A stretch of DNA of 64,000 nucleotides, from NCBI GenBank assembly GCA_963663035.1, contig OY760074.1:3072001-3136000 (forward strand). Direction: 5' to 3'. This stretch comes from Acidobacteriota bacterium. GTDB lineage: Bacteria; Acidobacteriota; UBA6911; RPQK01; JADFOI01. Under the pieces are notes generated by a model. The model was given only the letters and a program-made list of their open reading frames with translations. It searched no databases and was not told where the DNA came from. Positions within the stretch are counted from its first letter, which is position 1. The number at the start of each line of letters is the position of its first letter. Position numbers and translations under genes: made by a program. Below, piece after piece: positions 7,948 through 63,999 of the stretch.

Positions 7948-8433
7948 ATGAGAAAATTTGTGCTTTTAACCTTTATTGGGGTCGTTTTCACTTGGTCCCT
8001 GCTAGGCCAGGGTCGCGTCTCAATGACGGCTCCCGTCCTCAAAGCGGAAACTGAACAGATTAGCTTCACCACTAGATTCTCTGACTTTGTGGCTGGAAGC
8101 GATTATCGTTTGGGGGTGGGCACCACCGGTGACAAAATTGAGGGCGCCGAGTTTGAACTTTCGAAGGACAACGCTCCTCTTTCCACGGAGCTGATCAGTT
8201 TTACTCAAGGTTTTGCCAGCGCCTACTTTGAGGTGGAAGAGATTTCCGTCCAAGGATTCTCCTTCCCCTCCACAGACCTGCCCGGTGCAGGGGAAGAGGT
8301 GGCAATGAAGGTCACCATCCCACGAGCTGAGGCAGAGAGATTGGAAAGAATTTTCATCGTTGTGACAAAGCAATTCGGCCCGGACCGCTGGTACATTATG
8401 GACGGCGGTGAGATTAATTCCACCCACTGGTAA
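7948..8433 (+). CDS. Hypothetical exported protein
   Basis: GGGAG RBS, then MRKFVLLTFIGVVFTWSLLG signal peptide; beta-rich body. Confidence 0.7.
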   Translation: MRKFVLLTFIGVVFTWSLLGQGRVSMTAPVLKAETEQISFTTRFSDFVAGSDYRLGVGTTGDKIEGAEFELSKDNAPLSTELISFTQGFASAYFEVEEISVQGFSFPSTDLPGAGEEVAMKVTIPRAEAERLERIFIVVTKQFGPDRWYIMDGGEINSTHW

Positions 8434-8536
8434 AGTGTTGACCCCTTCGGGCTAGCCCGGATGGTTGATCCGTTCTCCTCGCTGCAGTAGAGCACTTTGC
8501 GCTGCCCCTGTTCCGCTGTCCTTTTGCTCCTTAGTT

Positions 8537-11137
8537 ATGCGCACCCTTCTCGATCTGCTTCCCGCCATGCAGCGTCTGGGCGACCGAGAGGCAGTCCGCT
8601 TTTCAAATGGTTTTCGCACCTGGAAACTCTCCTACCGACAACTTCATGCTCGAATTGGGGCCTTTGCTTGCTATCTTGAGCAGGAGGGGTTTCACCAGGG
8701 TGACCGGGTCCTGCTTTGGGGTGACAACAGGATCGAGTGGGTCGCTGTCTTCTGGGGGTGCCTGGTGCGAGGAGTCCAGGTTGTCCCGGTTGATGCCCGA
8801 TCCTCCCAGAAGCTGGTAAAGCGGATCCAACAAGAGGTCAACGCCCAGCTACTCGTGCACGACGACTCAGTCGAGTCGGACGAAATCCAGCTCAGGAAGA
8901 TTTCTTTCCGCGATACTGAAGGCCTTCCCTCCGGCAGCCCTTTTCAAGTCCAAGAAGCTTCCCCCTCTGACATTGTGGAGATCGTATACACCTCCGGAAC
9001 GACAGCAGAGCCAAAAGGGGTCGTCCACCGTCACAGGAATATCTGCGCCAATCTGAGACCTTTTCAAACAGAGATCGAACGTTATCAAAGGTGGGCCCGG
9101 CCTTTTCAGCCGCTCCGGATTCTCGACCTGCTTCCCCTCAGTCATATGTATGGCCAGTCATTGGGAATGTTTATTCCTCTCCTCTTGGGAGGAGCAGCCG
9201 TTTTCATGGTGGAGCTGAACCCGGGAGCGATCATGGATACCATCCGATGCCACAAAGTGTCTGTGCTGGTGGCGGTCCCCCGCTTGGTGAAGAACCTGCG
9301 AAACCATCTTGAACGGGGCTATGAGCTGCCCGAAGGGATCACCTCTGGCACGGGGTTCATCAGCCTGTCGCAGCGGTGGTGGCGGTATCGCCACGTGCAT
9401 GCTGCCTTTGGCTGGAAGTTCTGGTCCATTATCGTGGGCGGTGCTCAGCTGGATCCCCGATCAGAAGCTTTCTGGCATGAACTGGGGTTTTTAGTCCTTC
9501 AGGGATATGGGTTGACCGAAACCAGTCCGGTGGTGACGGTCAACCATCCTTTCGATTCCCGCCGTGGCTCCATCGGCAAGGCACTGAAAGGGCAAGAGGT
9601 CAGAATTGCCCCCGACGGGGAAATCCTGGTGCGGGGAGAGAGTGTGGTCAGCGAGTATCTGGGAAGTGAAGGCGAAAGCAGGACCAGTAAAGACGGATGG
9701 CTGCATACCGGCGACCTGGGGGAAATGGACCAGGAAGGCCGTCTTTACTTCAAGGGCCGCAAGAAAGACCTCATCGTTACCTCCGAGGGTCTCAATGTCT
9801 ACCCACAGGACGTGGAAGCAGCCCTCAATAGGCTCCCCGAAATCCTGGAGAGCACCGTGATCGGACTTTCCAAAGAAGGGGAAGAAACGGTTCATGCTGT
9901 GCTTATCCTGGAGGATGCCTCTCTCGATGCAGAACGGCTCATCCAGCAAGCCAATCGTGAGCTGGAGCCCCACCAGCGCATCCGTGGTTGGTCCATCTGG
10001 CCGGAAGAGGAATTCCCGCGTACCAGTTCCACCCTGAAAATCAAACGCAGCCAAGTTCAGCAGGTTTGCGCCGCACAACAGGGGGACTCAGCAGTCCTTC
10101 TGAAAGGTGGAATAGGAGGCGTTGAAAGCATCCTTTTCCAGATGACGGGCAAAGACGCTTCCCAACTGGAGGACAACCGGCGTCTCGATGAGGATCTGGG
10201 GTTGTCCTCGCTCGAGCAGGTCGATCTGCTCTCCCAGCTGGAAAATCAATTGGGAATCAATCTGGATGAGGAGCAGTTTACACGCCTCTTGACCCTTGGA
10301 GAGCTTAGAGCATGGCTCAAGGAGAAACGCCAAGAAGTGAAGGGACCATCGCTCCCTCGGGAGCGGTCCGCCACTTCTCTTGAGAGAGGCCCTTCCTGGG
10401 ATGGAGGTTCCAGCGGAAAGCAACCAGAGGAAGTAACGCCAGCCCCACCTCGCTGGACTCAGTCTCTACTGGTTCGCTGGATTCGCCGAGCCGCTCTTTA
10501 CCTGCTCATTCTCCCCACCTTTCGCCGCTACATTAAGTTGCAGGTCAGCGGCCTGGAACATCTCACTCAGGTTGACCCGCCAGTGATCTTTGTCGCCAAT
10601 CACGTGAGCCACTTGGACACAGTGGCAATTCTGTCCGCTCTCCCTTCACCCTGGCGCTTGAGCTTGGCGCCAGCCATGGCGCAAGAGTTTTTCCGCTCTT
10701 ACTTTCACCCCTCCGGGCTTCCCTGGAGAGAAAGACTGACCTCCGCAGCTCAATATTTCCTGGCCTGCGGCTTGTTCAATGCCTACCCCCTCCCACAAGA
10801 GAGGCGGGGTGTCCGGCGGGCACTCAGATACACTGGCCAGCTCATCGACCGAGGGAACTGCCCCCTCCTTTACCCGGAGGGCAGGCGGTCTGCAAACGGG
10901 AATCTTCAACCCTTTAAAACAGGAATCGGATTCATGGCCATTCGGCTTCAGGTCCCAGTGATTCCGATCTACCTCAAGGGACTCTACCAGGTCTATTCTC
11001 TCCATCATGAGTGGCCCCAATCGGGAGAGGTTCAGGTGAAGATCGGTTCCCCTCTCTCCTTTCAGGGGGAAAAGGATTACGAAAAGGTGACTCGAGCCGT
11101 GGAAGAAGTGATGCACCAGCTGAAGGATGAAGTGTGA
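8537..11137 (+). CDS. Long-chain acyl-CoA/ACP synthetase + ACP + PlsC-type acyltransferase fusion (Aas/ElbD-like without reductase)
   Basis: YTSGTTAEPKG, QGYGLTET, WLHTGDLG; carrier motif DLGLSSL; NHVSHLD and YPEGRRS acyltransferase motifs. Confidence 0.88.
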   Translation: MRTLLDLLPAMQRLGDREAVRFSNGFRTWKLSYRQLHARIGAFACYLEQEGFHQGDRVLLWGDNRIEWVAVFWGCLVRGVQVVPVDARSSQKLVKRIQQEVNAQLLVHDDSVESDEIQLRKISFRDTEGLPSGSPFQVQEASPSDIVEIVYTSGTTAEPKGVVHRHRNICANLRPFQTEIERYQRWARPFQPLRILDLLPLSHMYGQSLGMFIPLLLGGAAVFMVELNPGAIMDTIRCHKVSVLVAVPRLVKNLRNHLERGYELPEGITSGTGFISLSQRWWRYRHVHAAFGWKFWSIIVGGAQLDPRSEAFWHELGFLVLQGYGLTETSPVVTVNHPFDSRRGSIGKALKGQEVRIAPDGEILVRGESVVSEYLGSEGESRTSKDGWLHTGDLGEMDQEGRLYFKGRKKDLIVTSEGLNVYPQDVEAALNRLPEILESTVIGLSKEGEETVHAVLILEDASLDAERLIQQANRELEPHQRIRGWSIWPEEEFPRTSSTLKIKRSQVQQVCAAQQGDSAVLLKGGIGGVESILFQMTGKDASQLEDNRRLDEDLGLSSLEQVDLLSQLENQLGINLDEEQFTRLLTLGELRAWLKEKRQEVKGPSLPRERSATSLERGPSWDGGSSGKQPEEVTPAPPRWTQSLLVRWIRRAALYLLILPTFRRYIKLQVSGLEHLTQVDPPVIFVANHVSHLDTVAILSALPSPWRLSLAPAMAQEFFRSYFHPSGLPWRERLTSAAQYFLACGLFNAYPLPQERRGVRRALRYTGQLIDRGNCPLLYPEGRRSANGNLQPFKTGIGFMAIRLQVPVIPIYLKGLYQVYSLHHEWPQSGEVQVKIGSPLSFQGEKDYEKVTRAVEEVMHQLKDEV

Positions 11138-48381: not shown

Positions 48382-49230
48382 CTACATACCCTTTCGTTGC
48401 TGACTACTGTCGCGCGGATAACACCCAAGAACTTCCAGGAACTCGGTGAGTTCCTGTAAATGGGCCAGTGCCTTTCTGATGTTATCCTCTTTGGTATTAC
48501 CTAAAAAGTCTAGATAAAAGAGGTACTCCCAGGGGCGCCCCCGGATGGGCCGAGACTCAATCTTGGTCAGATCAATGTCGCGCAAGGCAAAAACGCTCAT
48601 GCACTTAAAAAGGGCTCCAGGGGTGTTCCTGAAGCTGAAAGCAACCGAGGTTTTATCTGTTTTTTTCCCTGCTTTAACTTCTGACGAGAGAAGGAAAAAG
48701 CGGGTGAAGTTTTCCTTGTCGTCTTGGATATCAGTCATCACAACTTCGCCGCCATAGTATTCAGCGGCTTGTTTTCCGGCAATGGCCGCACAGTCCCGCA
48801 AGTTCTGTTCCACAATTCGCTTAACACTCCCCGACGTATCATAGGCGCTACGCTTAATAAGGTTGGGAAACTGCTCAAAGAAGGTATCGCATTGATCAAG
48901 TGCTACCGGATGAGAAAGCACCGTGGTGACTTCCTCAAAAGTCGTGCCGGCCATAACAATCAGGTTGTGGTTGATTTGGAGATTAATCTCCTTGGCAATC
49001 CTGAGATGGTGCCGTAGTAGCAAGTCGTAGTTTTTGTGAATAGACCCGGCGAGAGAGTTTTCGATGGGGATTAAACAATACTGTGTTTCCTGGTTTGCGG
49101 TCAGTTGGAAGACATCTTCAAAGCGCTCACAACAGCGAAGTTCTGCGTTCTTTCCGAGAAGCCGCATTGCCGCCTCCTCGCTATAGGACCCCCGCTCCCC
49201 TTGGATTGCTACAACCGTCTTTTCCGTCAT
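48382..49230 (-). CDS. pheA: Prephenate dehydratase
   Basis: QGERGSYSE, PIENS, SHPVALDQC, NFTRF, LTKIESRP ACT domain. Confidence 0.94.
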   Translation of the reverse strand: MTEKTVVAIQGERGSYSEEAAMRLLGKNAELRCCERFEDVFQLTANQETQYCLIPIENSLAGSIHKNYDLLLRHHLRIAKEINLQINHNLIVMAGTTFEEVTTVLSHPVALDQCDTFFEQFPNLIKRSAYDTSGSVKRIVEQNLRDCAAIAGKQAAEYYGGEVVMTDIQDDKENFTRFFLLSSEVKAGKKTDKTSVAFSFRNTPGALFKCMSVFALRDIDLTKIESRPIRGRPWEYLFYLDFLGNTKEDNIRKALAHLQELTEFLEVLGCYPRDSSQQRKGM

Positions 49231-49239
49231 CCCCTTACT

Positions 49240-49511
49240 CTACCCCGCCCTCCACAGATCCTTCGACAACCCAAACCATTCTATCCTCTTTCCTTATCAA
49301 ACCCTTACACACTTCTCATTGGACAAGCCTTGTGGATCCCCTAAATCCTTCCTCGCCTTTTTCCTTTTCCCTGAAGGCTGTGCAATACCTACTCTTTATC
49401 CACAGCACCACCAACAAGCACGATGCTTTACTCTACATTGCTTTGCTGGGTTTTCAACAGAATCCACAGCACCTAATACGACTACTAAGATTAAACTAAA
49501 TTTATTTACTA
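49240..49511. other. Candidate chromosomal origin oriC
   Basis: Perfect DnaA box TTATCCACA (49396); degenerate boxes at 49331, 49451, 49460; then GCACC, seven DnaA-trio-like triplets (49474-49494) and an AT-rich tract; near parS/parAB/rpmH. Confidence 0.8.
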
Positions 49512-49528
49512 GGAGTTACCAATGGAAC

Positions 49529-49627
49529 TGGCGGAGGCACATGGGAATCGAACCCACCAACCCCAATTCTCATTGCGGCTCGGCTGGTTTTGAAGACCAG
49601 GCCCATCACCAGACAGGAAGTACCTCC
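49529..49627 (-). tRNA. selC: tRNA-Sec (UCA)
   Basis: 8-bp acceptor GGAGGTAC/GTGCCTCC, anticodon loop CT-TCA-AA, long variable arm, GGTTCGATTCC, encoded CCA. Confidence 0.95.
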
Positions 49628-49767
49628 CGGGTTGGAGTATACCACTCCCGAGACGCTTTTCTTCTGGCCCGATGATACCCCTCCTCGCTATACTTCCTTG
49701 GAACTGCAGTGAACAACACAAAGGGAGTAAACTCTACGTTCAGACTACCCAAAAGTTTGTAGAAAGC

Positions 49768-52700
49768 ATGAATAGAATAACAGAGGCTTTGGAGCAAAAA
49801 GTAATCTTTATCACCGGGGCTACTGGGTTTTTAGGTCAACCGCTGGTGGAGAAGATCCTGAGAGTTGCACCCGGTGTTAAGCGAATCTATCTTCTCATTC
49901 GGCCCAAGCGGCAACTTGCTGGTCAGGTCATGACGGCCGAGGAGAGGTTAGCGAAGGAATTATTCCAATCCAACATTTTTGAACGCCTGCGCTATAAGTA
50001 CCAGGACCAACTCAAAGGGTTTCTCCAAGAAAAGTTAGTTGCGGTTTCAGGGGATATTTCCGAACCTGGGTTAGGGTTGGACAGCGCCCTCAGGAGTCGA
50101 CTCGAAGAGGAGGTTGATATTGTCATCAACAGCGCTGCAGCGGTCTCATTCGATGCGCCATTGGATGAAGCTCTTAAAGCCAACGTTTTGAGCGCTGGCC
50201 GCATTGCCACCTTTACAAGTTCTTGTAAGGGAGCAATGTTGGTTCACGTCTCTACTGCCTATGTCAGCGGTGTTGCCGAAAACTTCGTCCCTGAGACGAT
50301 TTACCACTCAGCTTCGGGAGCAGAAGCAGCACAACCACACCCACCAGGGAAGTTCAGTGATGTGGATCAGGAAATTAAATATATCCATAAAATGATTGAA
50401 CAGGTTAAATTAGCCTCTCACGAGCCGAAACTCAAAAAAGTGCTTCTGAAAGAACCCCGCAAGCCTCGAAGAGGCGGTAAACGAGTGCCTCGTGCAGAGA
50501 AATGGGAAATCCTGCGCAAGAAATGGGTACAGGGCCGTTTGACCGAAGAGGGCATGAAGTGGGCGCGCCACCGAGGATGGAACGATACATACACCTACAC
50601 CAAGGCCATGGGCGAGCAGATGGTGGTTAAGAGACGGAATGGAATCCCTACCGTCATCATTCGCCCCTCAGTTATTGAGAGCAGCTTCTCAGAGCCCACT
50701 CCTGGCTGGCTGGACGGATTACGAATGGCCGACCCTCTCATTGTGGCAATTGGGAAGGGCCGCCTCCGGTCGCTACCCCTTGACGCGGATGTCATCCTTG
50801 ACCTAGTGCCGGTTGATATGGTCGTGAATGCCCTGCTGGCCACGATTCCGCCGGCCATTGAAGGTGGCGGGATGAAGGTGTATCACGTCGCGACGGGCGC
50901 AAAAAACCCGGTTACACTAGGTGAGCTCCACAGGCTTGTCTACCAGTATTTTCAAAAAAACCCACTATTGGACAAACGGGGCAACCCAATCCGCATCAAA
51001 CCACTAAAGTTTCCCAAACAGAGCGCTTTCCGGCTACAGCACAAGTTGAAAACGATGCCCTTACAGACAGCTGAGCTCACACTAGCAAGGCTGCCTTCTT
51101 TCAACACAACAGACAAAGTGAAGCGGAAGATCTCTACCGCTAAGGCTACCTACGAGAAGCTGTACTACTATGGAGAGATCTACCGGCCCTATCTTAATTT
51201 GGCCTGCAGCTTCGAAGTGCAAAACACGCTGCAGCTGTTCGATGCCTTAAATGAAGAGGAAAAAGAGCTTCTCAACTTCAATATTGAACGCTTAAACTGG
51301 CGCCACTACATTCAAAACGTTCACATTCCGGGTGTAAAAAAACACGTACTTAAGCTGGATGACTCCCCAACCCCGCTGGACGCAACCACTTCCTCCGATG
51401 CACTGACAATCAATGCGCTTGTTGACAACACTACAGAGAGATTTCCAAACAAGACCGCGATTCAAATGAAGCGCCAAGGTCACTGGCAGCGATTTACCTA
51501 TAAAGAGCTTCAATCCATCTCTCAGGAGATCGGGCAAGCTTTTTTAGGGATGGGACTTCGAAAAGGGGACCGCGTTGTCCTCTATTCGGAGAACAAGCCA
51601 GAGTGGGGAATCGCTTATCTGGGAGCAACCTCAGTGGGTTTGGTGGTTGTACCGCTGGATGCCCAGACGTGGCACAAAGAAGTCTGGGCGGCCGCACGGT
51701 TTACCCAGGCACGGGCATTGTTGGCATCCGAGGACTGCCTTGAGAGGCTTGCCCCGGAAGGCTTAGAAGAAAACGAGCGTCAGGATTCCCCGGTTCAATT
51801 ATTGAACCTTGATAATCGATGCACACCTTTTAAAGCGAAGGAATTTCCACGCAGCACTCGATTGTCTTCCCAGAAGAGGGAGGTTACGGAAAAGATCGAA
51901 GTGAAGCCTGGCGATCCGGCTTCGATCATCTTCACAAACAGCACCGCGGTAGACCCAAAAGGAGTGGCGCACAGCCATCGCAACTTCATCAACAACTTCC
52001 TGGGGGTCAATCACCACTTACCAATCGAACCAAGCGACCAGCTACTTTCCGTTCTTCCCCTGTCCCACGCCCTTGAATTCACTTGTGGATTCCTGATGGC
52101 GATCTATGGTGGAGCCACAGTGACCTACGTCGATTCACTCAAGCCGAAGGTCATTCTTGAATCGATGCAAAAGACGGGAACAACTTGCATGCTGGGAGTC
52201 CCTACTCTGTATGCTTTGATTCGAGATGATATAGAGCGGCGCATTCTGAGAACTCCTAAATCAGCTTTTAAATCAAACCTTCTCGCCACCTCGAAACAGG
52301 TGAGCCTGTCGGTGGAGCGGAAATTCGGAAAGAACATTGGCCGCCAACTTTTCGGCCGCGTGCACCAGGAATTTGGGGGGCAGATCAGACTTTTCGTGAG
52401 CGGTGGGTCTGCGTTGGGGGAAAAGCTCTACCAAGACTTCAAGGTGCTTGGAATGCCGATTTACGAGGGTTATGGCTTAACCGAAACGGCCCCCGTTCTC
52501 ACCGTCAACCCTTTAGGGCACAGCAGGAAAGGATCCGCGGGAAAGCCTCTTCCCGGTGTGGAACTCAGAGTCTTTCGTCCGGATAAGGAGGGAATTGGCG
52601 AGATTGTAGCGCGGAGTCCCAGCTTAATGGAGGGTTACTACAACAATCCTGCAGCCACGGAGTTCGTGATGAGAGAGGGCTGGTTTCATACCGGCGACCT

Positions 52701-54114
52701 CGGATGGATGGATGCCGATGGGTATCTGTACGTCACCGGACGAATCAAGGACGTCATTGTCACGGGGGCTGGCAAGAATGTCTACCCTGCTGACCTGGAA
52801 GCAATCTACCGAAGCCTTCCCACCGTCAAAGAGATTTGCGTTTTGGGGATCAAGAGTGGCCTCACAGAGGATATCCATGCCGTTGTGATTCCCGATGGAG
52901 GAGGGCAAGGCCAGCGCGAAGCGGCCGAGGTGAAGAAGGAGGTTCAACAGGAAATTCAGAAGATAGGAAAGGAGTTGCCGAGCTATCACCGACTCCAACA
53001 CATCCATGTGTGGCTTGAGCCCTTACCACGGAGCGAGTCAGGGAAGGTTTGCAGGGAGACAGTTCGGGGTAAACTCCTGGAGGATCTCCAGCATGAGCGC
53101 GATCGACCCAGCCAGGACTCTCCCCCAGAAGTGCACAAGGAAGAGGATCGAGAAGATGAGCTTTTGAGAGAACTCTCTCGGATCTCCGGTGTTCCAACTC
53201 TGGAAATCAAAGCGGATAGCCACCTTTATTCAGATCTGGGGCTAGATTCCTTGATGACAATCCAATTCCTTTTGTTTGTCGAACATCAGCTCGGAGTCAC
53301 CATCTCTGATCAAGCAGCGCCAGCCCTGGAGACTGTGGGGCAGCTTCTAGAGGAAATCCGCTCCCAGGTTTCGGTCAGGAAGCCGCGACATGGAAGCAAG
53401 CCGACAAAGCGGCCCAAGATTCGCTCGGCTCGGCCTTACACCAGGCGCTCGGCAGTTGATCGGAGATTGCTGAGTAGTTGCCAGTGGATTCTTAGAGTGC
53501 TTTACAAGACATATTTTCAATTGGAACTACACAACCAGAAAGACTTCCCCCAGGGTGGCCCTTTCATCATTGCAGCCAATCACGCTAGCCACCTGGATGC
53601 CGGAGCGATGATTTCAGCTGTCATCATTGCGGCAGGCGTCAAGGAGGCACGGAAATTACATGTCTTGGGGGCCAGGGATTATTTTTTCAACACCCCCTTC
53701 AAGAGTTGGCTCTTCAGCACTTTCCTAAATCTAGTGCCTGTTGAACGGGAAGAAACATCTCTGGCCGGTATACGGATGGTGAAATCCATTCTGTCTGCTG
53801 GTGAATCTGTGTTGATCTTCCCCGAGGGAACCCGCTCGCGGACGGGTCAGATCCAGGAATTTAAACCCGGCGTTGGTTTAATCGCACTGGAGTTGGGCGT
53901 GCCGGTTGTACCCGCCTATATCGGAGGGACCTATGAGGCGATGCCTACCGGAAAGGCTTTCCCCCAGCGCAGAAAAGTAAAGGTGTTCTTTGGCCCGACC
54001 ATCCGGGTGGAAGCCAATCTTTCAAAGGGCACACGAACAGTCGCCGATGAGCGCTATCGACAAATTGCCACAGAAGTCCGCACGGCCATCGTAGAGTTGG
54101 CAAATCTGTCATAA
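49768..54114 (+). CDS. ElbD-like multidomain lipid enzyme: fatty acyl reductase + adenylation + ACP + acyltransferase
   Basis: TGATGFLG, HVSTAY, YTYTK, IRPSVI (FAR); EGYGLTET, FHTGDLG (A); DLGLDSL (ACP); NHASHLD, FPEGTRS (AT). Confidence 0.88.
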   Translation: MNRITEALEQKVIFITGATGFLGQPLVEKILRVAPGVKRIYLLIRPKRQLAGQVMTAEERLAKELFQSNIFERLRYKYQDQLKGFLQEKLVAVSGDISEPGLGLDSALRSRLEEEVDIVINSAAAVSFDAPLDEALKANVLSAGRIATFTSSCKGAMLVHVSTAYVSGVAENFVPETIYHSASGAEAAQPHPPGKFSDVDQEIKYIHKMIEQVKLASHEPKLKKVLLKEPRKPRRGGKRVPRAEKWEILRKKWVQGRLTEEGMKWARHRGWNDTYTYTKAMGEQMVVKRRNGIPTVIIRPSVIESSFSEPTPGWLDGLRMADPLIVAIGKGRLRSLPLDADVILDLVPVDMVVNALLATIPPAIEGGGMKVYHVATGAKNPVTLGELHRLVYQYFQKNPLLDKRGNPIRIKPLKFPKQSAFRLQHKLKTMPLQTAELTLARLPSFNTTDKVKRKISTAKATYEKLYYYGEIYRPYLNLACSFEVQNTLQLFDALNEEEKELLNFNIERLNWRHYIQNVHIPGVKKHVLKLDDSPTPLDATTSSDALTINALVDNTTERFPNKTAIQMKRQGHWQRFTYKELQSISQEIGQAFLGMGLRKGDRVVLYSENKPEWGIAYLGATSVGLVVVPLDAQTWHKEVWAAARFTQARALLASEDCLERLAPEGLEENERQDSPVQLLNLDNRCTPFKAKEFPRSTRLSSQKREVTEKIEVKPGDPASIIFTNSTAVDPKGVAHSHRNFINNFLGVNHHLPIEPSDQLLSVLPLSHALEFTCGFLMAIYGGATVTYVDSLKPKVILESMQKTGTTCMLGVPTLYALIRDDIERRILRTPKSAFKSNLLATSKQVSLSVERKFGKNIGRQLFGRVHQEFGGQIRLFVSGGSALGEKLYQDFKVLGMPIYEGYGLTETAPVLTVNPLGHSRKGSAGKPLPGVELRVFRPDKEGIGEIVARSPSLMEGYYNNPAATEFVMREGWFHTGDLGWMDADGYLYVTGRIKDVIVTGAGKNVYPADLEAIYRSLPTVKEICVLGIKSGLTEDIHAVVIPDGGGQGQREAAEVKKEVQQEIQKIGKELPSYHRLQHIHVWLEPLPRSESGKVCRETVRGKLLEDLQHERDRPSQDSPPEVHKEEDREDELLRELSRISGVPTLEIKADSHLYSDLGLDSLMTIQFLLFVEHQLGVTISDQAAPALETVGQLLEEIRSQVSVRKPRHGSKPTKRPKIRSARPYTRRSAVDRRLLSSCQWILRVLYKTYFQLELHNQKDFPQGGPFIIAANHASHLDAGAMISAVIIAAGVKEARKLHVLGARDYFFNTPFKSWLFSTFLNLVPVEREETSLAGIRMVKSILSAGESVLIFPEGTRSRTGQIQEFKPGVGLIALELGVPVVPAYIGGTYEAMPTGKAFPQRRKVKVFFGPTIRVEANLSKGTRTVADERYRQIATEVRTAIVELANLS

Positions 54115-54185
54115 TTAAGGTGGTAGTTTGTTTGAGGCTTGTCTCAGCACAGAACATCTCTGCCCTGTGAATAGAAAAGAGGAGA

Positions 54186-54920
54186 ATGCTAATGCCCAAA
54201 AGCTTGTTTATCCTTTCAACCATTCTGTTGAGCGGTCTCTTTGCCTGCGGCGTGCAGGAAACCCAAGAGGGGGCCCAGCAACAGGCAGGAAGCCCGCCTG
54301 CAGATCAACTCGAAAGTGAAGCAACAACTCCCTCGATAGTTCCAGAGACCCAACTTGAAGCCGGCGCCGACCCAGCGGTTGCTCCTGCTGCCCCTCCCCA
54401 GCCCGCAACTGCCATTGTCCCGGAGGGAACGGTTCTGGAAGTCCGCCTGCCAGAGCCGCTGAGCACCAAAACCAATCAGAATGGCGACGCAGTAGTTGCT
54501 TTGCTGGACGAGGATTTGGTAGTGGATGGAAAGATCGTCTTTCCGGAAGGAAGTAAAATCTATGGCACGCTCTTGGCCGTAAAAGGCTCTGGGCGGGTTG
54601 AGGGCCTTGCGGAGATGACCCTCACCCTGACGGAAATACACCTGGGTCAAGATATCTATCCAGTTGGCACCAGCGCCATTACAATTCAAGCCGAAGGCAC
54701 CAAGGGGCGCGACGCCACAGTGATTGGAGGTGCTGCCGGTGTGGGGGCGTTAGTTGGTGGAATTATCGGCGGTAAAAAAGGGGCCGCTGTTGGGGCCGCT
54801 GTTGGGGGTGGGGCTGGAACAGCACAAGTGCTCACGAGCACGGGTGAGGAAGTTGAGCTTGAACCAGAGCACAAGCTCAGCTTTAACTTGAGCAGGGAGC
54901 TTGAAGTGAAGCTTCCCTAG
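54186..54920 (+). CDS. Lipoprotein with TrbI-like beta domain and glycine zipper
   Basis: Lipobox LFAC; VPEGTVLEVRL; GGAAGVGALVGGIIGGKKGAAVGA. Confidence 0.8.
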   Translation: MLMPKSLFILSTILLSGLFACGVQETQEGAQQQAGSPPADQLESEATTPSIVPETQLEAGADPAVAPAAPPQPATAIVPEGTVLEVRLPEPLSTKTNQNGDAVVALLDEDLVVDGKIVFPEGSKIYGTLLAVKGSGRVEGLAEMTLTLTEIHLGQDIYPVGTSAITIQAEGTKGRDATVIGGAAGVGALVGGIIGGKKGAAVGAAVGGGAGTAQVLTSTGEEVELEPEHKLSFNLSRELEVKLP

Positions 54921-54929
54921 TTCCTTGGT

Positions 54930-54958
54930 TTGACCAGGGACCCCGCATTTTCTACAAT
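54930..54958 (+). promoter_or_regulatory. Promoter of tRNA-Ser
   Basis: TTGACC - 17 nt - TACAAT, followed by a GC-rich stretch. Confidence 0.7.
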
Positions 54959-54998
54959 ACAGGCGCCATTCGGATCACTTTCTGATCCGTTGCCGGCC

Positions 54999-55090
<92 letters not shown>

Positions 55091-55197
55091 GAGCTATTAG
55101 CCTTTTAGACTCAAGAACTTGAGGGCTTTCCATCAGCGTTTCCAGTCAGCTTCAAACAGGCGCTCCCACTTTCTGTACTACTGAAGGACAATGAGCC

Positions 55198-56958
55198 GTG
55201 GATGAGGATCGCCAAAACACCCAGACGATGGACGAGCAGCCCTGGGGACATCGCTGGGGCTTTGCTGACACGCGCTTTATTCTCAATGACGATGGATCTG
55301 TCACCTTAACCGGCGCCCGCTACGATCTATGCGGTTATCGGATGTACGACTTTCTGCCCTATGTAGAGGGCGTTCTCGGGGTCCGGCTGGATCTGACCGA
55401 CCGCAAAGAAGAAGTTCGAGACAAGCCCGTTCAGGCCCCCAGCCGAAATGAAGCTTTCTGCCAGTCAGTGGAACAGGCGTTCCCATCCAGCCAGTACACT
55501 ACGGATGATCGGGAGCGCCTGATCCACAGCCACGGGCAGAGCTCCGCCGATGAAGTGTTTCCGGTTGTCTATACCCGGATCCAGCGAGTGGCGGACATGG
55601 TTTTCCACTGCGAGTCCCAAGAGGATGCACACAAGATCATCCAGCTGGCGAAAGAACACGATGTCTGCCTGGTTCCCTTCGGGGGAGGCACTAGTGTCAG
55701 CTGTGCGCTCAAGCTCCCCGAAAGCGAAAAGCGGATGATTGTCTGCGTGGATATGAAGCGGATGAACAAGATCGAGTGGATCGACAAGGATAATCTGCGG
55801 GCTGGCGTCCAGGCGGGCATCACTGGCCTCCAGCTTGAACGGGAACTGGAAAAAGCCGGCTTCACGTCAGGCCATGAGCCTGACAGTCTCGAGCTTTCGA
55901 CCGTGGGAGGGTGGATTGCCACCAATGCCAGCGGAATGAAGAAGAATCGATACGGAAATATTGAGGGCTTGGTGGAAGAGATCACCATGATTACCCCGGA
56001 AGGCATACTGGAGCAGGCCGAGGCGCTGCCGCGGACTTCTATGGGGATCCAGCCCCAGAACCTCTTCTTCGGCAGCGAAGGGAATCTGGGAATTATTACC
56101 AAGGCAGCACTCAAGATCCATCCGACTCCGGAGGTCAAGAAATACGGCTCCCTGATTTTCCCCAATTTCGATCTCGGCACTCAATTCCTTTATCGACTGT
56201 CCCATAGTGGCTTTGTTCCCGCCAGTATTCGTCTGGTAGACAACACCCAACTTCGTTTCGGGCAGGCCCTCAAACCGAGGCCGGCCGGCTTCAAGGCATT
56301 CCTGGAGCGACTCAAGAAGTTTTATGTACTGAGAGTTCGGGGATTTGAGCCGGATGAGATGGTCGCCGCGACCATAGTGATGGAAGGCTCTCGAGTGGAA
56401 GTCGAGTTCCAGGAGCGCAATACTTACGCTCTAGCGAAGGAGTTCCAGGGATTGCCTACCGGCTCTGAAAATGGGCGAAGAGGCTATCTGCTTACCTTCG
56501 CCATCGCCTACATCCGAGATTTTCTGGCCGACTTTCACGTGATGGGGGAGACTTTCGAGACCTCCGTCCCCTGGAGCAAGATTTCTGAGGTCTGCCAAGC
56601 GGTGAGAGCTAAAGCAGTCGCCCAGCACCAGGCCTTCAGTTTGCCCGGGAAGCCTTATCTTTCCTACCGGATCACCCAGGTTTACCACACAGGCGTTTGC
56701 ATTTACTTCATGTATGGAATTTACACCAGGGGAGTCGACCTTCCGGAAAAGATTTTCAGTACCATCGAGCACTCTCTGCGGGAAAGCATCATTGAGAACG
56801 GCGGGTCGATCTCTCATCACCATGGCGTGGGAAAACTCCGCAAGGATTTCATGAAGCAGGCGCTGTCCCTTTCGAGCATTGATTTGCTCAAGAAGATCAA
56901 GAACTGCGCCGATCCACAGAATATTTTTGGTATCCGCAACAACGTTTTCGCAGAATGA
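55198..56958 (+). CDS. Alkyl-dihydroxyacetonephosphate synthase (AGPS)-like FAD enzyme
   Basis: PFGGGTSV, GHEPDS.E.STVGGWIAT.ASGMKKN.YGNIE, GSEG.LG, RGYLLTFAIAYIRD, ETFETSVPW, SHHHGVGKLRK. Confidence 0.88.
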   Translation: MDEDRQNTQTMDEQPWGHRWGFADTRFILNDDGSVTLTGARYDLCGYRMYDFLPYVEGVLGVRLDLTDRKEEVRDKPVQAPSRNEAFCQSVEQAFPSSQYTTDDRERLIHSHGQSSADEVFPVVYTRIQRVADMVFHCESQEDAHKIIQLAKEHDVCLVPFGGGTSVSCALKLPESEKRMIVCVDMKRMNKIEWIDKDNLRAGVQAGITGLQLERELEKAGFTSGHEPDSLELSTVGGWIATNASGMKKNRYGNIEGLVEEITMITPEGILEQAEALPRTSMGIQPQNLFFGSEGNLGIITKAALKIHPTPEVKKYGSLIFPNFDLGTQFLYRLSHSGFVPASIRLVDNTQLRFGQALKPRPAGFKAFLERLKKFYVLRVRGFEPDEMVAATIVMEGSRVEVEFQERNTYALAKEFQGLPTGSENGRRGYLLTFAIAYIRDFLADFHVMGETFETSVPWSKISEVCQAVRAKAVAQHQAFSLPGKPYLSYRITQVYHTGVCIYFMYGIYTRGVDLPEKIFSTIEHSLRESIIENGGSISHHHGVGKLRKDFMKQALSLSSIDLLKKIKNCADPQNIFGIRNNVFAE

Positions 56959-57013
56959 GTGGAGAGTTGGTAGGATTGCGGGTTACACAACCCATTCGCC
57001 GGAGTGTTCCAAA

Positions 57014-57820
57014 ATCGTTCTGAAGGACAAAACAGCCATTATTACGGGAGCCTCTTCTGGTCTGGGAAGGCAGATGGCGCTGGATCTGGCCCGACAGGAG
57101 ATGAATCTTGTTTTGGCGGCCCGGGACGGGAACGCCTTGGAAGAGCTGGCTCGCCAAATCGGAGACCGGGGAGCATCCGTTCTGGTGCATCCGACCGACG
57201 TGACAGATGAGTCACAATGCCGCACGTTGATTACCAGGACAATAGAACGTTTCAAGAGGCTGGACTATTTAGTTTTGAATGCCGGGCTGGGCATGTGGGT
57301 CCGCTTCGATCAGGTCACTGATCTAAGCATCTTCAGACGGCTCATGGATGTGAACTATATGGGGGTGGTGCACTGTATCCATCCCGCTCTTCCCTACCTC
57401 AAAGAGGTTTGCGGAACCGTTGTCACCATCTCCTCCGCCCAGGCCTTGATCGGCATCTCCAAGCACACGGGCTACTCGGCCACAAAACACGCCCTGAGAG
57501 GATTTCTGGAGGCTTTGGAATTCGAGATGGGAGGCCAGATCCGGTTCCTGACGGTAATGCCCGGCTGGGTCAGCGGAACCAAGCTGAGGACTAATGCCCT
57601 GGGAGCGGCTGGAGCTCCACTAGGCGCCTCCAGGCTTCGCCACACCGATGAAGCAGTCAGTCTGGAAGAATGCAGCACAAGAATTGTTCGAGCAATGCAG
57701 GAGGGTTCCAGTGCTGTTTACATCCCCTGGAAGATCCGTGCCATCCCCTGGCTCAAGCTGTTGGTTCCGGGGTGGCTTAGGGCCAGGATCAAGAGATCAA
57801 TGGCTCAGCAGGAGAAGTGA
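57014..57820 (+). CDS. Classical SDR oxidoreductase (DHRS7-like); start codon uncertain
   Basis: TGASSGLG, NAG, S..YSATK, PGWV; no ATG/GTG/TTG in frame between the AGPS stop and the Rossmann motif. Confidence 0.85.
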   Translation: MVLKDKTAIITGASSGLGRQMALDLARQEMNLVLAARDGNALEELARQIGDRGASVLVHPTDVTDESQCRTLITRTIERFKRLDYLVLNAGLGMWVRFDQVTDLSIFRRLMDVNYMGVVHCIHPALPYLKEVCGTVVTISSAQALIGISKHTGYSATKHALRGFLEALEFEMGGQIRFLTVMPGWVSGTKLRTNALGAAGAPLGASRLRHTDEAVSLEECSTRIVRAMQEGSSAVYIPWKIRAIPWLKLLVPGWLRARIKRSMAQQEK

Positions 57821-57854
57821 AGCGTCGCTTTCGACGCTTCAAACTTCAAGAAGA

Positions 57855-57878
57855 GAACCTATGCATAATCCCGGCTAG
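57855..57878 (-). repeat. Solo end of MITE family A
   Basis: Reverse complement CTAGCCGGGATTATGCATAGGTTC matches the 36831 TIR. Confidence 0.6.
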
Positions 57879-57969
57879 AGCATCTTGCGATCCATGGCTT
57901 CAGCCGCTGGATGAGTCCTTCATTCGAGCGGATCTCTTCTACCATTACAGGGTAATCCATGACTTACGC

Positions 57970-57998
57970 TTGCACATGTGCCCCACATGTTCCATGCT
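57970..57998 (+). promoter_or_regulatory. vapBC promoter with operator palindrome
   Basis: TTGCAC - 17 nt - CATGCT; ACATGTG-ccc-CACATGT between the elements; ATG follows after 6 nt. Confidence 0.6.
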
Positions 57999-58004
57999 AG
58001 GTGC

Positions 58005-58244
58005 ATGGCCAAGATGCTACAAGTTCGAAACATACCCGACCGGCTCCACAGGGAACTGAGGAGACGAGCGAAACAGCGGGGTCAAGCGCTGACGGACTAC
58101 GTTCAACAGATACTCGAGCGTGAAGTCACTCGCCCACCAGCCTCGGAAGTGTTTGACCGAATCAGCCGACGCCCTAGAGTGAAATTGGACGTCAGCGCCT
58201 CCACCTTGATTCGGGAAGAACGAAGAAAGCGAGTTGCATCCTGA
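58005..58244 (+). CDS. Ribbon-helix-helix antitoxin (FitA/VapB-like)
   Basis: MLQVRNIPDRLHRELRRRAK RHH pattern; upstream of PIN toxin. Confidence 0.85.
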   Translation: MAKMLQVRNIPDRLHRELRRRAKQRGQALTDYVQQILEREVTRPPASEVFDRISRRPRVKLDVSASTLIREERRKRVAS

Positions 58245-58252
58245 GGCTTGTC

Positions 58253-58645
58253 GTGCTGGATGCCTCGGCATTAGTGGAATACCTCTTACAGACACCCAGA
58301 TCCACTTCAATTGAGGGTCTTGTCACAGCATCCGATTGTGATTTACACGGTCCCACCCTATGTGATGTCGAAGTTTGCTCGGCACTGCGTAGAGCTTTGC
58401 TCGCCAAACGTCTCTCCGAGAAGCGTGCCACTGAGGCGTTGGAAGACTACCTTGACTTGCCCTTGATTCGTCACGGACACCTCAACTTGCTAGAGAGAGT
58501 GCTCCAATTACGAGACAATTTCTCAGCCTACGACGCCACGTACTTGTCTTTGGCCGAGTCATTCGGAGCTATTTTCGTTACTGCGGACGACTCCCTAGCG
58601 CGAGCAGTCCGAAGACACCTCCCTGACTTGCAATTGAGAAAGTAG
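58253..58645 (+). CDS. vapC: PIN-domain toxin
   Basis: VLDASALVE, E, AYDATY.SLAE, VTAD; start may be slightly upstream. Confidence 0.88.
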   Translation: MLDASALVEYLLQTPRSTSIEGLVTASDCDLHGPTLCDVEVCSALRRALLAKRLSEKRATEALEDYLDLPLIRHGHLNLLERVLQLRDNFSAYDATYLSLAESFGAIFVTADDSLARAVRRHLPDLQLRK

Positions 58646-62541: not shown

Positions 62542-63999
62542 TTACTGACGCTCACTGTTGGAACCCTCCTGGTGGTCGGGAATTGTCGCGCCCAACTTGA
62601 CGAGCAGGGCCATGGTGTCCTCGTATTTATTGTTCGCGGGCGCCAGCCGTTCGGCGACCTGATAGGGCGTCACTCCCCGGCGGTCCGCCGCATCCAGGTC
62701 CGAACCATTCTCCGCCAGGAATCGAACGATTTCTTGCGCGCGAATATTGACGGCAGCGTGCAGTGCTGTTCGACCATCCGAATCCCGCTCAGCGAGATCG
62801 GCTCCCAGCCCCACGAGAAGTTTCACGGCCTCCAAGCTATTCGCGTCCTCCGCCTCCTTGCTACCATGAAGGTCTTCCCGCGGAACGCCATCCGCAAGCC
62901 GCTTTGCTCCCGCTGCCAGCATCAGCGGCGGCGTCCCATCGAGCTCCAACTTCAGATGTGGGTCGGCGCCTGCGTCCAACAGGGCGCGCATGATACGCAC
63001 ATCGGCGGCAGCAGCGGCGAGAGCGAACGGCGTGCCTCCGATGGGGCTGTTATTCGACGTTTGATTCGTAAACTGCGAAAGAGGCGAGAAGTGTCCAGTG
63101 ATTCGGGCGTTCGGATTGGCTCCATGCGAGAGGAGCGCCTCGACCAATTCCGGCATGTTCGGCCGCCGTTCGGGTCGAGGTTTGTGATGCCCTCCTGTAA
63201 GAGTTTTACCAATGGCTACCCAGCCCTCGGGCACGGCATGATGCAGGGCCGTCCAGCCGTATGCATCCGTCGAGTTCGGATCCGCGCCTTTATCCAGCAG
63301 GAACAGCGCAAGCGCTTGATGCCCGTTCGCGGTTGCCATCACCAAGGCGCTGGGATTGGCGTCTGGGACAAAACAAAATGGACCCTCCCCGGGCCATCCT
63401 CGGTTATTGCCGTAATTGTTCACACAGGGACCGCCGGTCAGGTCCCGGCGCGCATCAGGTCCTCTGGCCGTCACTTCATTCACATCCACGCCCGCCCCAA
63501 GCAAGATCCGAGCCGACTCCAGATCCCCCTCCTGAGCGGAAAACATCAACGCGGTGAACCCATCCTTGGAACGTGCGTTGACATCCGCTCCTGCCTCAAT
63601 CAGCGCCTGCACAACCGGAGAGTGCTTCCCTGCCACCGCCCGCATCAGCGCGGTATGCCGCTGCCGCTCCTCTGTCACATCGACATCCGCCCCCGCTGAC
63701 AGCAGCAACTTGACCGCCTGGACATCGCCCGTGCGGGCGCATGTGATGAGTGGTGTCTCTCCGGTCCATTGGACCACGTTCGGATCGGCGCCCGCCTTCA
63801 GGAAAGTCGCCACCATGGCCGCACTCCGATTCTGACAAGCCAGCGTGAGAGGCGTGACGCCATAGTCGTTGGCCAGGTTCGGGTTGGCGCCGGCGCGAAC
63901 CAGCAGGTCAGCCGTCTCCAGATCGGTCCAGTGAGCGGCCCAAGCCAATGCGGTGGTTCCATCACCTTGCGTGGTATCGACATTCGCGCCCTGTTCTAT
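62542..63999 (-). CDS. Ankyrin-repeat protein, 5'-truncated by window edge
   Basis: Repeated G.TPL/TAL..A, LL..GAD.N; frame open to the window end. Confidence 0.92.
   Translation of the reverse strand: MEQGANVDTTQGDGTTALAWAAHWTDLETADLLVRAGANPNLANDYGVTPLTLACQNRSAAMVATFLKAGADPNVVQWTGETPLITCARTGDVQAVKLLLSAGADVDVTEERQRHTALMRAVAGKHSPVVQALIEAGADVNARSKDGFTALMFSAQEGDLESARILLGAGVDVNEVTARGPDARRDLTGGPCVNNYGNNRGWPGEGPFCFVPDANPSALVMATANGHQALALFLLDKGADPNSTDAYGWTALHHAVPEGWVAIGKTLTGGHHKPRPERRPNMPELVEALLSHGANPNARITGHFSPLSQFTNQTSNNSPIGGTPFALAAAAADVRIMRALLDAGADPHLKLELDGTPPLMLAAGAKRLADGVPREDLHGSKEAEDANSLEAVKLLVGLGADLAERDSDGRTALHAAVNIRAQEIVRFLAENGSDLDAADRRGVTPYQVAERLAPANNKYEDTMALLVKLGATIPDHQEGSNSERQ

Follow-up and report, generated by a model that had tools for sequence, protein, structure and literature searches.

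The DNA analysed here is a 64,000-nucleotide stretch of an Acidobacteriota bacterium (contig OY760074.1, positions 3,072,001 to 3,136,000), hereafter called the window, which belongs to a 96.6% complete genome consisting of a single contig of 3.59 Mb (G000). ORF listing, ARAGORN and Pfam searches place five features on the forward strand between positions 49768 and 57820: an ElbD-type gene that fuses fatty acyl reductase (FAR), adenylation, acyl carrier protein (ACP) and acyltransferase (AT) domains, a lipoprotein-like gene, a tRNA-Ser(GCT), a gene for alkylglycerone-phosphate synthase (AGPS), and a gene for a classical short-chain dehydrogenase/reductase (SDR). This agrees with a preliminary description of the window made from its letters, which had reported same-strand fusion, AGPS-like and SDR genes within 8 kb, with a lipoprotein gene and tRNA-Ser between them. 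The same description attributed the DNA to a probable acidobacterium, and this attribution holds, as, among the matches listed, the 16 public-genome AGPS loci nearest to that of the window are all titled Acidobacteriota or Acidobacteria. We propose that the locus probably encodes an oxygen-tolerant, Ger-free ether-lipid route that proceeds through alkyl-dihydroxyacetone phosphate (alkyl-DHAP), with every substrate and product predicted from the genes.

In eukaryotes, the chemistry of AGPS is known and requires a fatty alcohol and acyl-DHAP. The window protein has the two-domain fold of VAO-type flavoenzymes (FAD_binding_4, PF01565, 1.4e-34; FAD-oxidase_C, PF02913, 1.2e-38). Its residues 16-581 align over 566 residues with residues 93-656 of the solved guinea-pig AGPS (4bby; E-value 7.2e-160, 536 bits), including the N-terminal part, which pairs with chain residues 93-191. 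The match to Dictyostelium AGPS (2uuu) has an E-value of 7.5e-82, and the next flavoenzymes after the AGPS entries, namely lactate, glycolate and 2-hydroxyglutarate dehydrogenases, are found at 1e-21 or weaker. The wild-type Tyr is kept where mutant 4bca has Phe, and the wild-type Arg is kept where mutant 4bc7 has His. Also retained are the Arg of the AY(I/M)RD motif (here AYIRD) and the HHH loop (aligned with chain residues 615-617), which we take to be a functional element of AGPS. Residues R352, Y508 and R447 of the Dictyostelium enzyme have been reported as important for catalysis (PMC3509576; here and below, published work is described from the accessible parts of the sources). Given the extent of the match to mammalian AGPS and the retained Tyr, Arg and HHH residues, what had been described as an AGPS-like flavoenzyme is a true AGPS orthologue, with EC 2.5.1.26 as its predicted activity. 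A tree of 81 rows from a quick search, which informs neither on the donor nor on gain versus loss, assigns the protein to a clade of 21 acidobacterial rows (SH-aLRT 94) within an unresolved comb.

The ElbD-type protein carries all four expected domains, in the order expected, on one polypeptide. Pfam matches are to NAD_binding_4 (3.5e-68) with Sterile, AMP-binding (1.1e-71), PP-binding (1.3e-09) and Acyltransferase (4.3e-25). The protein contains the TGxxGxxG, YxxxK, A5/A7/A8, DSL serine, HX4D and PEGTRS motifs, and each of them is conserved to at least 90% among 52 orthologues. PF07993 has a single strong match in the genome, the FAR domain of ElbD (234 bits); 11 further matches, in ORFs of 314-414 amino acids, do not exceed 54 bits. 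These searches support ElbD as the only plausible source of fatty alcohol that can be predicted in this genome. Five proteins of the genome match PF01553, and the AT domain of ElbD is among them. All six AGPS-adjacent acyltransferases taken from three other phyla find the ElbD AT domain as their best match in the window genome, with 87-196 bits versus 69-117 bits for the runner-up. This domain is the best counterpart of AGPS-linked acyltransferases and the best candidate for the predicted acyl-DHAP step. Another of the five PF01553 proteins is a second adenylation-ACP-AT fusion of 890 amino acids that lacks a FAR domain (window 8465-11137, + strand). The genome also encodes a third such fusion (G000:C1:3166468-3169017) and a 1007-amino-acid AT-bearing ORF around G000:C1:223241-223657 (- strand).

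A search for the DUF2229 domain (PF09989) of Ger/PlsA-type proteins gave no match in the window genome, and the controls, Thermotoga maritima and three other genomes, were matched. This result agrees with the earlier proposal of a route that does not use Ger. The Lipid_desat domain (PF10520) of PEDS1/CarF had no match in the window genome and none in the control genomes either, and so no plasmalogen step is predicted.

The third enzyme is an SDR, as described earlier, and is of the classical type. Its match to adh_short has an E-value of 1e-44, its TGASSGLG cofactor motif and YSATK are visible, and it has the combination of cofactor motif and Ser-Tyr-Lys triad that marks classical SDRs. The other Pfam matches are adh_short_C2 and KR, and not the epimerase/dehydratase family PF01370. 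Among NCBIfam models it matches PRK06181, which bears a generic SDR name, at 266.8 bits (cut-off 215). Its nearest ESM Atlas clusters are bacterial, with Fidelibacterota the commonest.

The association of this SDR with AGPS extends well beyond the window. In a sample of 61 genomes of the same order, including that of the window, AGPS is present in 38 and the SDR in 37. The two sets coincide except for G031, whose AGPS is at the end of a contig. By their coordinates, 32 of the 38 have the SDR gene directly 3ˊ of AGPS. The five cases without adjacency all belong to one family (f9) and have only a weaker SDR match (40-44% identity) located elsewhere. Among public genomes, we considered the best 80 of at least 571 confirmed AGPS relatives, using one genome per species. 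The SDR gene directly follows AGPS in 45 of these 80 loci. These 45 are titled Acidobacteriota, Neomarinimicrobiota or Marinimicrobia, Poribacteria and, in one case, Lentisphaeria. It does not follow AGPS in the Chloroflexota-titled and cyanobacterial loci. The SDR is therefore supported as a conserved partner of AGPS, and this synteny and co-occurrence suggest that the two enzymes are functionally coupled.

Table 1. Features at and beside the ElbD, AGPS and SDR genes of the window
Feature	Position	Strand	Basis and remarks
tRNA-SeC(TCA)	49529..49627	-	ARAGORN; context, not pathway
ElbD-type multidomain gene	49768..54114	+	Longest ORF 49672..54114; likely start ATG 49768
FAR domain (NAD_binding_4 + Sterile)	49810..51354	+	Pfam residues 47-387 and 491-561 of P0001; TGxxGxxG, YxxxK
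Adenylation (AMP-binding) domain and C-terminal subdomain	51427..53064	+	Pfam residues 586-990 and 1027-1131
Acyl carrier (PP-binding) domain	53158..53352	+	Pfam residues 1163-1227; LGLDSLM serine motif
Acyltransferase domain, proposed DHAP acyltransferase	53521..53922	+	Pfam residues 1284-1417; HX4D and FPEGTRS motifs
Lipoprotein-like gene, 244 aa	54186..54920	+	Signal peptide, Cys lipobox-like start, Gly-rich/Gly-zipper tail
tRNA-Ser(GCT), right-hand anchor of the ElbD backbone	54999..55090	+	ARAGORN
AGPS orthologue, 586 aa	55198..56958	+	GTG start with AAGGA 6 nt upstream; alternative ATG 55228
Classical SDR (P0004), proposed alkyl-DHAP reductase	56879..57820	+	Start uncertain; homology to relatives from about residue 44-50 (about 57010)

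Gaps of 71, 78 and 107 nucleotides separate ElbD from the lipoprotein-like gene, this gene from tRNA-Ser, and tRNA-Ser from AGPS, respectively. The lipoprotein-like protein has no Pfam or NCBIfam match. Alignments with relatives begin at residues 29-36 of the long ElbD ORF, and the ATG chosen in the preliminary description is therefore the likely start of this gene. No ATG, GTG or TTG codon occurs between the stop codon of AGPS and the Rossmann motif of the SDR, which implies that the SDR start is a non-canonical codon or else one of two TTG codons inside the 3ˊ end of AGPS (56879, 56927). Whichever start applies, the AGPS and SDR genes are tightly packed. A consensus scan of positions 49200-58400 found five promoter-like sites compared to 4.8 in shuffled sequences and seven terminator-like sites compared to 10.2, and is thus uninformative on operon structure.

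The same gene order is present on a single contig (C55) of G002, an independent genome from the window's genus, with protein identities of about 89-92%, indicating that the arrangement is not an assembly artefact. Near-identical DNA also occurs in public sequencing runs of several studies (share 0.90-0.99 in runs of four studies), and in four runs the contig depths on either side of tRNA-Ser are alike (11.9/8.2, 12.7/11.9, 7.3/6.5 and 32.3/29.6). None of the contigs listed from these four runs spans tRNA-Ser, as the pieces end inside the tRNA gene, and therefore contiguity rests on the single-contig genome of the window and on contig C55. Directly after the SDR gene, positions 57817-58645 (+ strand) hold small ORFs and a PIN-domain gene (58253-58645), probably a toxin-antitoxin pair. 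Farther downstream, a 467-amino-acid protein (62542-63948, - strand) is composed of ankyrin repeats over nearly its whole length, an unusual makeup for a free-living bacterium.

The strongest support for the functional model comes from the neighbours of AGPS in other phyla. In 27 of the best 80 loci, the gene immediately preceding AGPS on the same strand encodes an acyltransferase. In a Neomarinimicrobiota locus (L033), Pfam identifies FAR, AT, AGPS and SDR as four separate genes in that order. In Poribacteria, an ElbD-type fusion of 1407 amino acids is contiguous with AGPS and SDR (L062), and tblastn finds the same arrangement in two more loci (L063, L065). A cyanobacterial metagenome-assembled genome (L039) has an adenylation-ACP-reductase, an AT, AGPS and a fatty-acid desaturase, and Dulcicalothrix (L047) has an adenylation-ACP-reductase and an adenylation-ACP-AT divergent from AGPS. 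In a second Neomarinimicrobiota locus (L057), a gene of the HMG-CoA-reductase family (8044-9201) takes the FAR position directly upstream of AT, AGPS and SDR. These loci suggest that the same four activities as those of the peroxisome gather around bacterial AGPS in several gene formats. There are also places where AGPS stands apart. Loci titled Chloroflexota, and those of the order's family f9, have no FAR, AT or SDR gene within 10 kb of AGPS, and the neighbours of AGPS in f9 (an MFS transporter, a GFO/IDH/MocA oxidoreductase, a sulfatase and a HAD-AIRS fusion) are not conserved between two genomes.

Several of these loci carry additional features. The HMG-CoA-reductase-family gene of L057 may encode an alternative four-electron acyl-thioester reductase that yields fatty alcohol, and a second SDR gene and a strictosidine-synthase-like gene come after AT, AGPS and SDR in this locus. 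In both cyanobacterial loci (L039, L047) the adenylation-ACP-reductase replaces FAR and the SDR is absent. The desaturase-family gene directly downstream of AGPS in L039 (9727-10668) is a candidate for alkyl-chain modification or vinyl-ether formation. In other acidobacterial families, FAR-containing ORFs of about 790-810 amino acids (for example, G128:C25:105862-107409, G074:C33, G075:C21, G200:C22 and G105:C119) are possibly FAR-AT fusions of the MXAN_1675 type, and AGPS was not found in those genomes.

Within the order, ElbD sits in a conserved backbone of rnpA, pheA, tRNA-SeC, ElbD, in some cases the lipoprotein gene, and tRNA-Ser(GCT). The pheA, tRNA-SeC and ElbD segment is kept in most relatives' loci. 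The lipoprotein gene adjoins tRNA-Ser both in relatives with AGPS and in those with the alternative genes described below, and thus belongs to this backbone and not to the pathway. The AGPS-SDR pair of the window lies directly beyond tRNA-Ser(GCT). ElbD, either full-length or in pieces, is present in 55 of the 61 order genomes (not found in G004, G007, G010, G011, G012 and G014) and in 36 of the 38 that carry AGPS. A sample of 151 high-quality genomes from across the phylum has AGPS in nine (eight from this order), Zn-dependent medium-chain dehydrogenase genes of the kind described below in three (all from this order), and ElbD-type FAR in 27. All nine AGPS-bearing genomes of this sample also carry an ElbD-type gene.

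The genomes that lack AGPS reveal a second set of genes. In three members of the same genus (G003, G005, G006), ElbD is followed by genes for a HAD-family protein, a Zn-dependent medium-chain dehydrogenase (Zn-ADH) and a LarA-like protein, and then by the lipoprotein gene and tRNA-Ser. The first encodes a HAD-IB hydrolase (TIGR01490, 125 bits versus a cut-off of 98). The Zn-ADH is of the threonine/polyol dehydrogenase kind and falls under every NCBIfam cut-off, and the LarA-family protein matches NF052592, an NPN-dependent hydroxyacid isomerase of the LarAH14/15/16 group, at 770 bits versus a cut-off of 740. Loci with ElbD, HAD and Zn-ADH, often accompanied by this nickel-pincer isomerase, include L095:9136-12618, L094, L100, L104 and L106. 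None of these three congener proteins finds a match in the window genome. In G005, a gene for an IS481-family transposase (L094:5935-6879, - strand) is inserted between Zn-ADH and the LarA-like gene.

Zn-ADH is present in 20 of the 61 order genomes, and the only overlap with the 38 AGPS-bearing genomes is G002. There, the contig with Zn-ADH (C64) has 96.7% DNA identity to G003 and duplicates the lipoprotein/tRNA-Ser segment, whereas contig C55 with ElbD and AGPS is about 72% identical to the same region of G003. The bin has 6% contamination. The identity to G003 and the duplicated segment identify C64 as a mis-binned second strain. Four genomes, 65-81% complete, have neither set. With completeness of 90% or more and contamination of 5% or less as thresholds, 49 genomes of the order qualify, and every one of them carries exactly one cassette, which is AGPS-SDR in 34 cases and Zn-ADH in 15. 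One unpublished genome (G017) is among the 20 Zn-ADH genomes and the 49 high-quality genomes and was excluded from the trees; when it is omitted from the counts, 38 genomes with AGPS and 19 with Zn-ADH remain of 60, or 34 and 14 of 48 high-quality genomes. HAD tracks Zn-ADH (19 genomes), and the one case of HAD alongside AGPS-SDR is G019. Of the 20 Zn-ADH genomes, 18 have ElbD, HAD and Zn-ADH in one contiguous block, and in the other two the genes lie at contig ends. The LarA-like gene is irregular, adjoining ElbD in some Zn-ADH genomes, lying elsewhere in others, and standing directly behind ElbD in the AGPS-bearing family f9.

A tree of ElbD with 52 rows (35 AGPS, 16 Zn-ADH and one unlabelled), which leaves out G017, two fragments (G001 and G037) and six genomes without ElbD, requires at least six changes of cassette state, and starred branches force six of them. 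In 500 shuffles of the labels, the number of changes required was always higher. Because AGPS-SDR alternates with a cassette located directly behind ElbD, we infer that AGPS-SDR is tied functionally to ElbD. The distribution alone of the two cassettes hints that AGPS-SDR and HAD-Zn-ADH might be alternative partners of ElbD, although we hold this view only tentatively. Equally tentative is the extension in which ElbD would be a common front end that provides fatty alcohol and an acylated C3 phosphate, and in which AGPS-SDR or HAD plus Zn-ADH, often with a LarA-family protein, would be interchangeable back ends. If true, the HAD-Zn-ADH cassette would encode the long-sought AGPS-independent ether-bond chemistry of ElbD-type clusters, and a comparison of the two types would make this question testable. 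It is pure speculation that this cassette might act by transient oxidation of C2, which would activate C1 for acyl/alkyl exchange. A full-text literature search that paired ElbD with lactate racemase found no such pairing.

In the route that we propose for the window genome, ElbD would adenylate a fatty acid and load it onto its own carrier domain. The FAR domain would reduce part of this acyl-S-ACP pool to fatty alcohol, and the AT domain would transfer another part to DHAP to give 1-acyl-DHAP. AGPS would then exchange the acyl group for the fatty alcohol to form 1-O-alkyl-DHAP, and the SDR would reduce the C2 keto group to yield 1-O-alkyl-sn-glycerol-3-phosphate, which would enter ordinary phospholipid synthesis. 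This is the model of the preliminary description, in which the fusion provides both alcohol and acyl-DHAP, AGPS forms the ether and the SDR performs the reduction. We take it as the most likely, since ElbD offers both the sole plausible alcohol source and, in its AT domain, the best candidate for acyl-DHAP formation. Comparative genomics favours these enzymatic assignments, whereas the ideas of a single operon and of an ElbD dedicated to AGPS did not stand up.

Linkage is where the operon idea fails. Although ElbD accompanies AGPS in nearly all AGPS-bearing genomes, the two loci are within 5 kb of each other in just seven of the 38: G000 and G002 of the window genus, and G038, G047, G051, G057 and G060 of family f7. 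In five of these seven genomes, all from f7, AGPS-SDR lies on the strand opposite to ElbD, and in the window the lipoprotein and tRNA genes intervene between them. In the 31 remaining relatives the genes are unlinked, as in G016, where the ElbD and AGPS loci are at 3.40 Mb and 0.88 Mb. Most likely, ElbD and AGPS-SDR are separate transcription units whose products would cooperate metabolically. Exclusive dedication of ElbD to AGPS is contradicted by the 20 relatives with the Zn-ADH cassette, 19 of which lack AGPS and 18 of which hold ElbD sequence (not found in G004). Likewise, deletion of the AGPS gene in M. xanthus lowers ether lipids only slightly and deletion of elbD nearly abolishes them (PMC9131029), so ElbD can make ether lipids without AGPS.

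Other observations weigh against the proposed route together with the points on linkage and dedication just given. Two genomes (G012, 90% complete; G014, 75% complete) have AGPS-SDR, yet ElbD and FAR were undetected. The P-loop (A3) motif of the ElbD adenylation domain is a variant of the glycine-rich form that we presume to be canonical. The specificity of the AT domain for DHAP, glycerol-3-phosphate or lysophosphatidic acid is unreadable from its sequence, which makes DHAP acylation a predicted role. Searches of PDB sequences and the ESM Atlas with the SDR returned generic SDRs only and no characterized acyl/alkyl-DHAP reductase (EC 1.1.1.101) such as PexRAP/DHRS7B or Ayr1. More generally, comparative genomics is the sole footing of the functional reading.

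Some of these observations could be accommodated by two independent neighbouring routes, with ElbD making ethers through its own chemistry and AGPS-SDR forming a separate, minor route fed by other enzymes. Such a separation is seen in Myxococcus genetics (PMC9131029, PMC13159169), and agrees with the lack of linkage in 31 relatives. Three further large adenylation-ACP-AT or AT-bearing proteins of the window genome could supply acyl-DHAP to AGPS. We consider it unlikely, however, because the genome has no second FAR-type reductase to provide AGPS with fatty alcohol and lacks the HAD, Zn-ADH and LarA-like genes that go with ElbD in AGPS-less congeners. Moreover, the either/or distribution of cassettes in 49 of 49 high-quality genomes would be unexpected if AGPS-SDR were unrelated to ElbD, and AGPS-linked acyltransferases elsewhere resemble the AT domain of ElbD and not its paralogues.

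AGPS and SDR might instead act on other substrates, such as an acyl-ketol phosphate or a precursor of a secondary metabolite, or the product might be a neutral or signalling ether lipid. No product has been established for any acidobacterial AGPS, the enzyme stands alone over 10 kb in the Chloroflexota-titled loci and family f9, and surveys find that gene carriage is not always matched by detectable ether lipids (PMC11868695). Nevertheless, the very high full-length similarity to mammalian AGPS, including the N-terminal part, the retention of the catalytic residues, and the recurrence of FAR and AT genes beside AGPS in four phyla make this reading improbable. We judge it about as improbable that a recombination hot spot at tRNA-Ser brought the two loci of the window together by chance, in which case their adjacency would carry no functional meaning. 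In favour of this reading, synteny between G000 and G002 stops just past the SDR stop codon, at about 57828, and AGPS-SDR adjoins tRNA-Ser(GCT) in both orientations in two lineages. A weak joint that connects 55091 to 57854, and so skips exactly AGPS-SDR, was seen in two runs, with one contig each and 23 letters on the shorter side; it could come from a strain without the cassette or have arisen by chance, and the evidence is too slight to be counted. However, there is no direct repeat of the tRNA-Ser 3ˊ end flanking AGPS-SDR, and none of the genes inspected next to the cassette was noted to be an integrase (downstream, the PIN-domain gene, a weak haem-binding match, a FAD-binding protein and the ankyrin-repeat protein), although no search was aimed at integrases. 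Furthermore, the functional link is built on co-occurrence, the alternation of cassettes and operons in other phyla, and not on adjacency.

The alkyl-DHAP route that we favour resembles several known systems. The MXAN_1676-1674 operon of Myxococcus encodes AGPS, a FAR-AT fusion and an NAD-dependent reductase of the epimerase family (PMC9131029, PMC13012113). As in that operon, a bacterial AGPS in the window is associated with one polypeptide containing both FAR and AT and with an NAD(P)-dependent reductase, which follows the logic of the peroxisomal route (PMC9131029, PMC13012113). When compared by domains and published descriptions, the window differs in three respects: its FAR/AT partner, an ElbD-type protein of four domains, brings along adenylation and carrier domains of its own; its reductase belongs to the classical SDRs (adh_short) and not to the epimerase/dehydratase family; and its genes do not form one operon.

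The ElbD of the M. xanthus elbABCDE cluster, matched by description, has the same four-domain architecture of FAR1-like, acyl-CoA-synthetase-like, ACP and AGPAT-like parts (PMC9131029). In that cluster, ElbD (MXAN_1528) is accompanied by the HAD protein ElbB and by ElbE, which is NAD-dependent. An ElbB-like HAD gene directly behind ElbD is shared by congeners of the window organism. In contrast, the window genome lacks a HAD, ElbE-type, Zn-ADH or LarA-like neighbour, and a lipoprotein gene follows ElbD instead. Even the AGPS-less relatives differ from elbABCDE, with HAD and Zn-ADH as partners, in some cases plus a LarAH14/15/16-type protein, rather than HAD and an epimerase-family protein. Relative to the peroxisomal pathway (FAR1, GNPAT, AGPS and PexRAP/DHRS7B), the same four activities are predicted and AGPS is clearly orthologous, but acyl activation would take place on an integral carrier domain and not on CoA. 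Fusion of FAR and AT is also found in protist FARAT (PMC13012113).

Homologues of ElbD and agps have been reported from the same genomes of Poribacteria, Acidobacteriota and Latescibacterota (bioRxiv 10.64898/2026.06.23.733905). The elb-like clusters of these sponge symbionts resemble the window in having ElbD and agps together, as do the contiguous ElbD, AGPS and SDR genes of our Poribacteria loci (L062, L063, L065). Homologues of elbD and agps in Acidobacteria subdivision 4 are already published, the published treatments regard the ElbD and AGPS routes as independent alternatives, and the accessible parts of these sources, supplements aside, were not found to describe an SDR as the standard partner of AGPS, the feeding of AGPS by ElbD, or the alternation of cassettes (PMC9131029, PMC13012113, PMC13159169, PMC11868695, bioRxiv 10.64898/2026.06.23.733905). 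The novelty implied by the preliminary description is reduced accordingly, as both the Myxococcus operon with AGPS, FAR-AT and reductase and the acidobacterial homologues are in print in these sources. Since a bacterial AGPS route with fused FAR and AT was known, the window offers a variant and not a discovery of a new kind.

Acidobacteria are prime suspects as producers of ether-bound branched tetraether lipids, which serve as palaeoclimate proxies, and the manner in which aerobic bacteria form the ether bond is unsettled. For one order of this phylum, the combination of ElbD, AGPS and SDR provides a coherent and testable gene set for a Ger-free alkyl-DHAP route, and genomic evidence from several phyla indicates that bacterial AGPS is normally partnered by a classical SDR. 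The sister genomes that keep ElbD but swap AGPS-SDR for HAD-Zn-ADH constitute a natural experiment, which could reveal the product of ElbD and the replacement for AGPS. The predicted pathway belongs to a type of bacterial ether-lipid route that is already known but is arranged in a new way, and the pattern seen across relatives turns the function of ElbD into a testable question.

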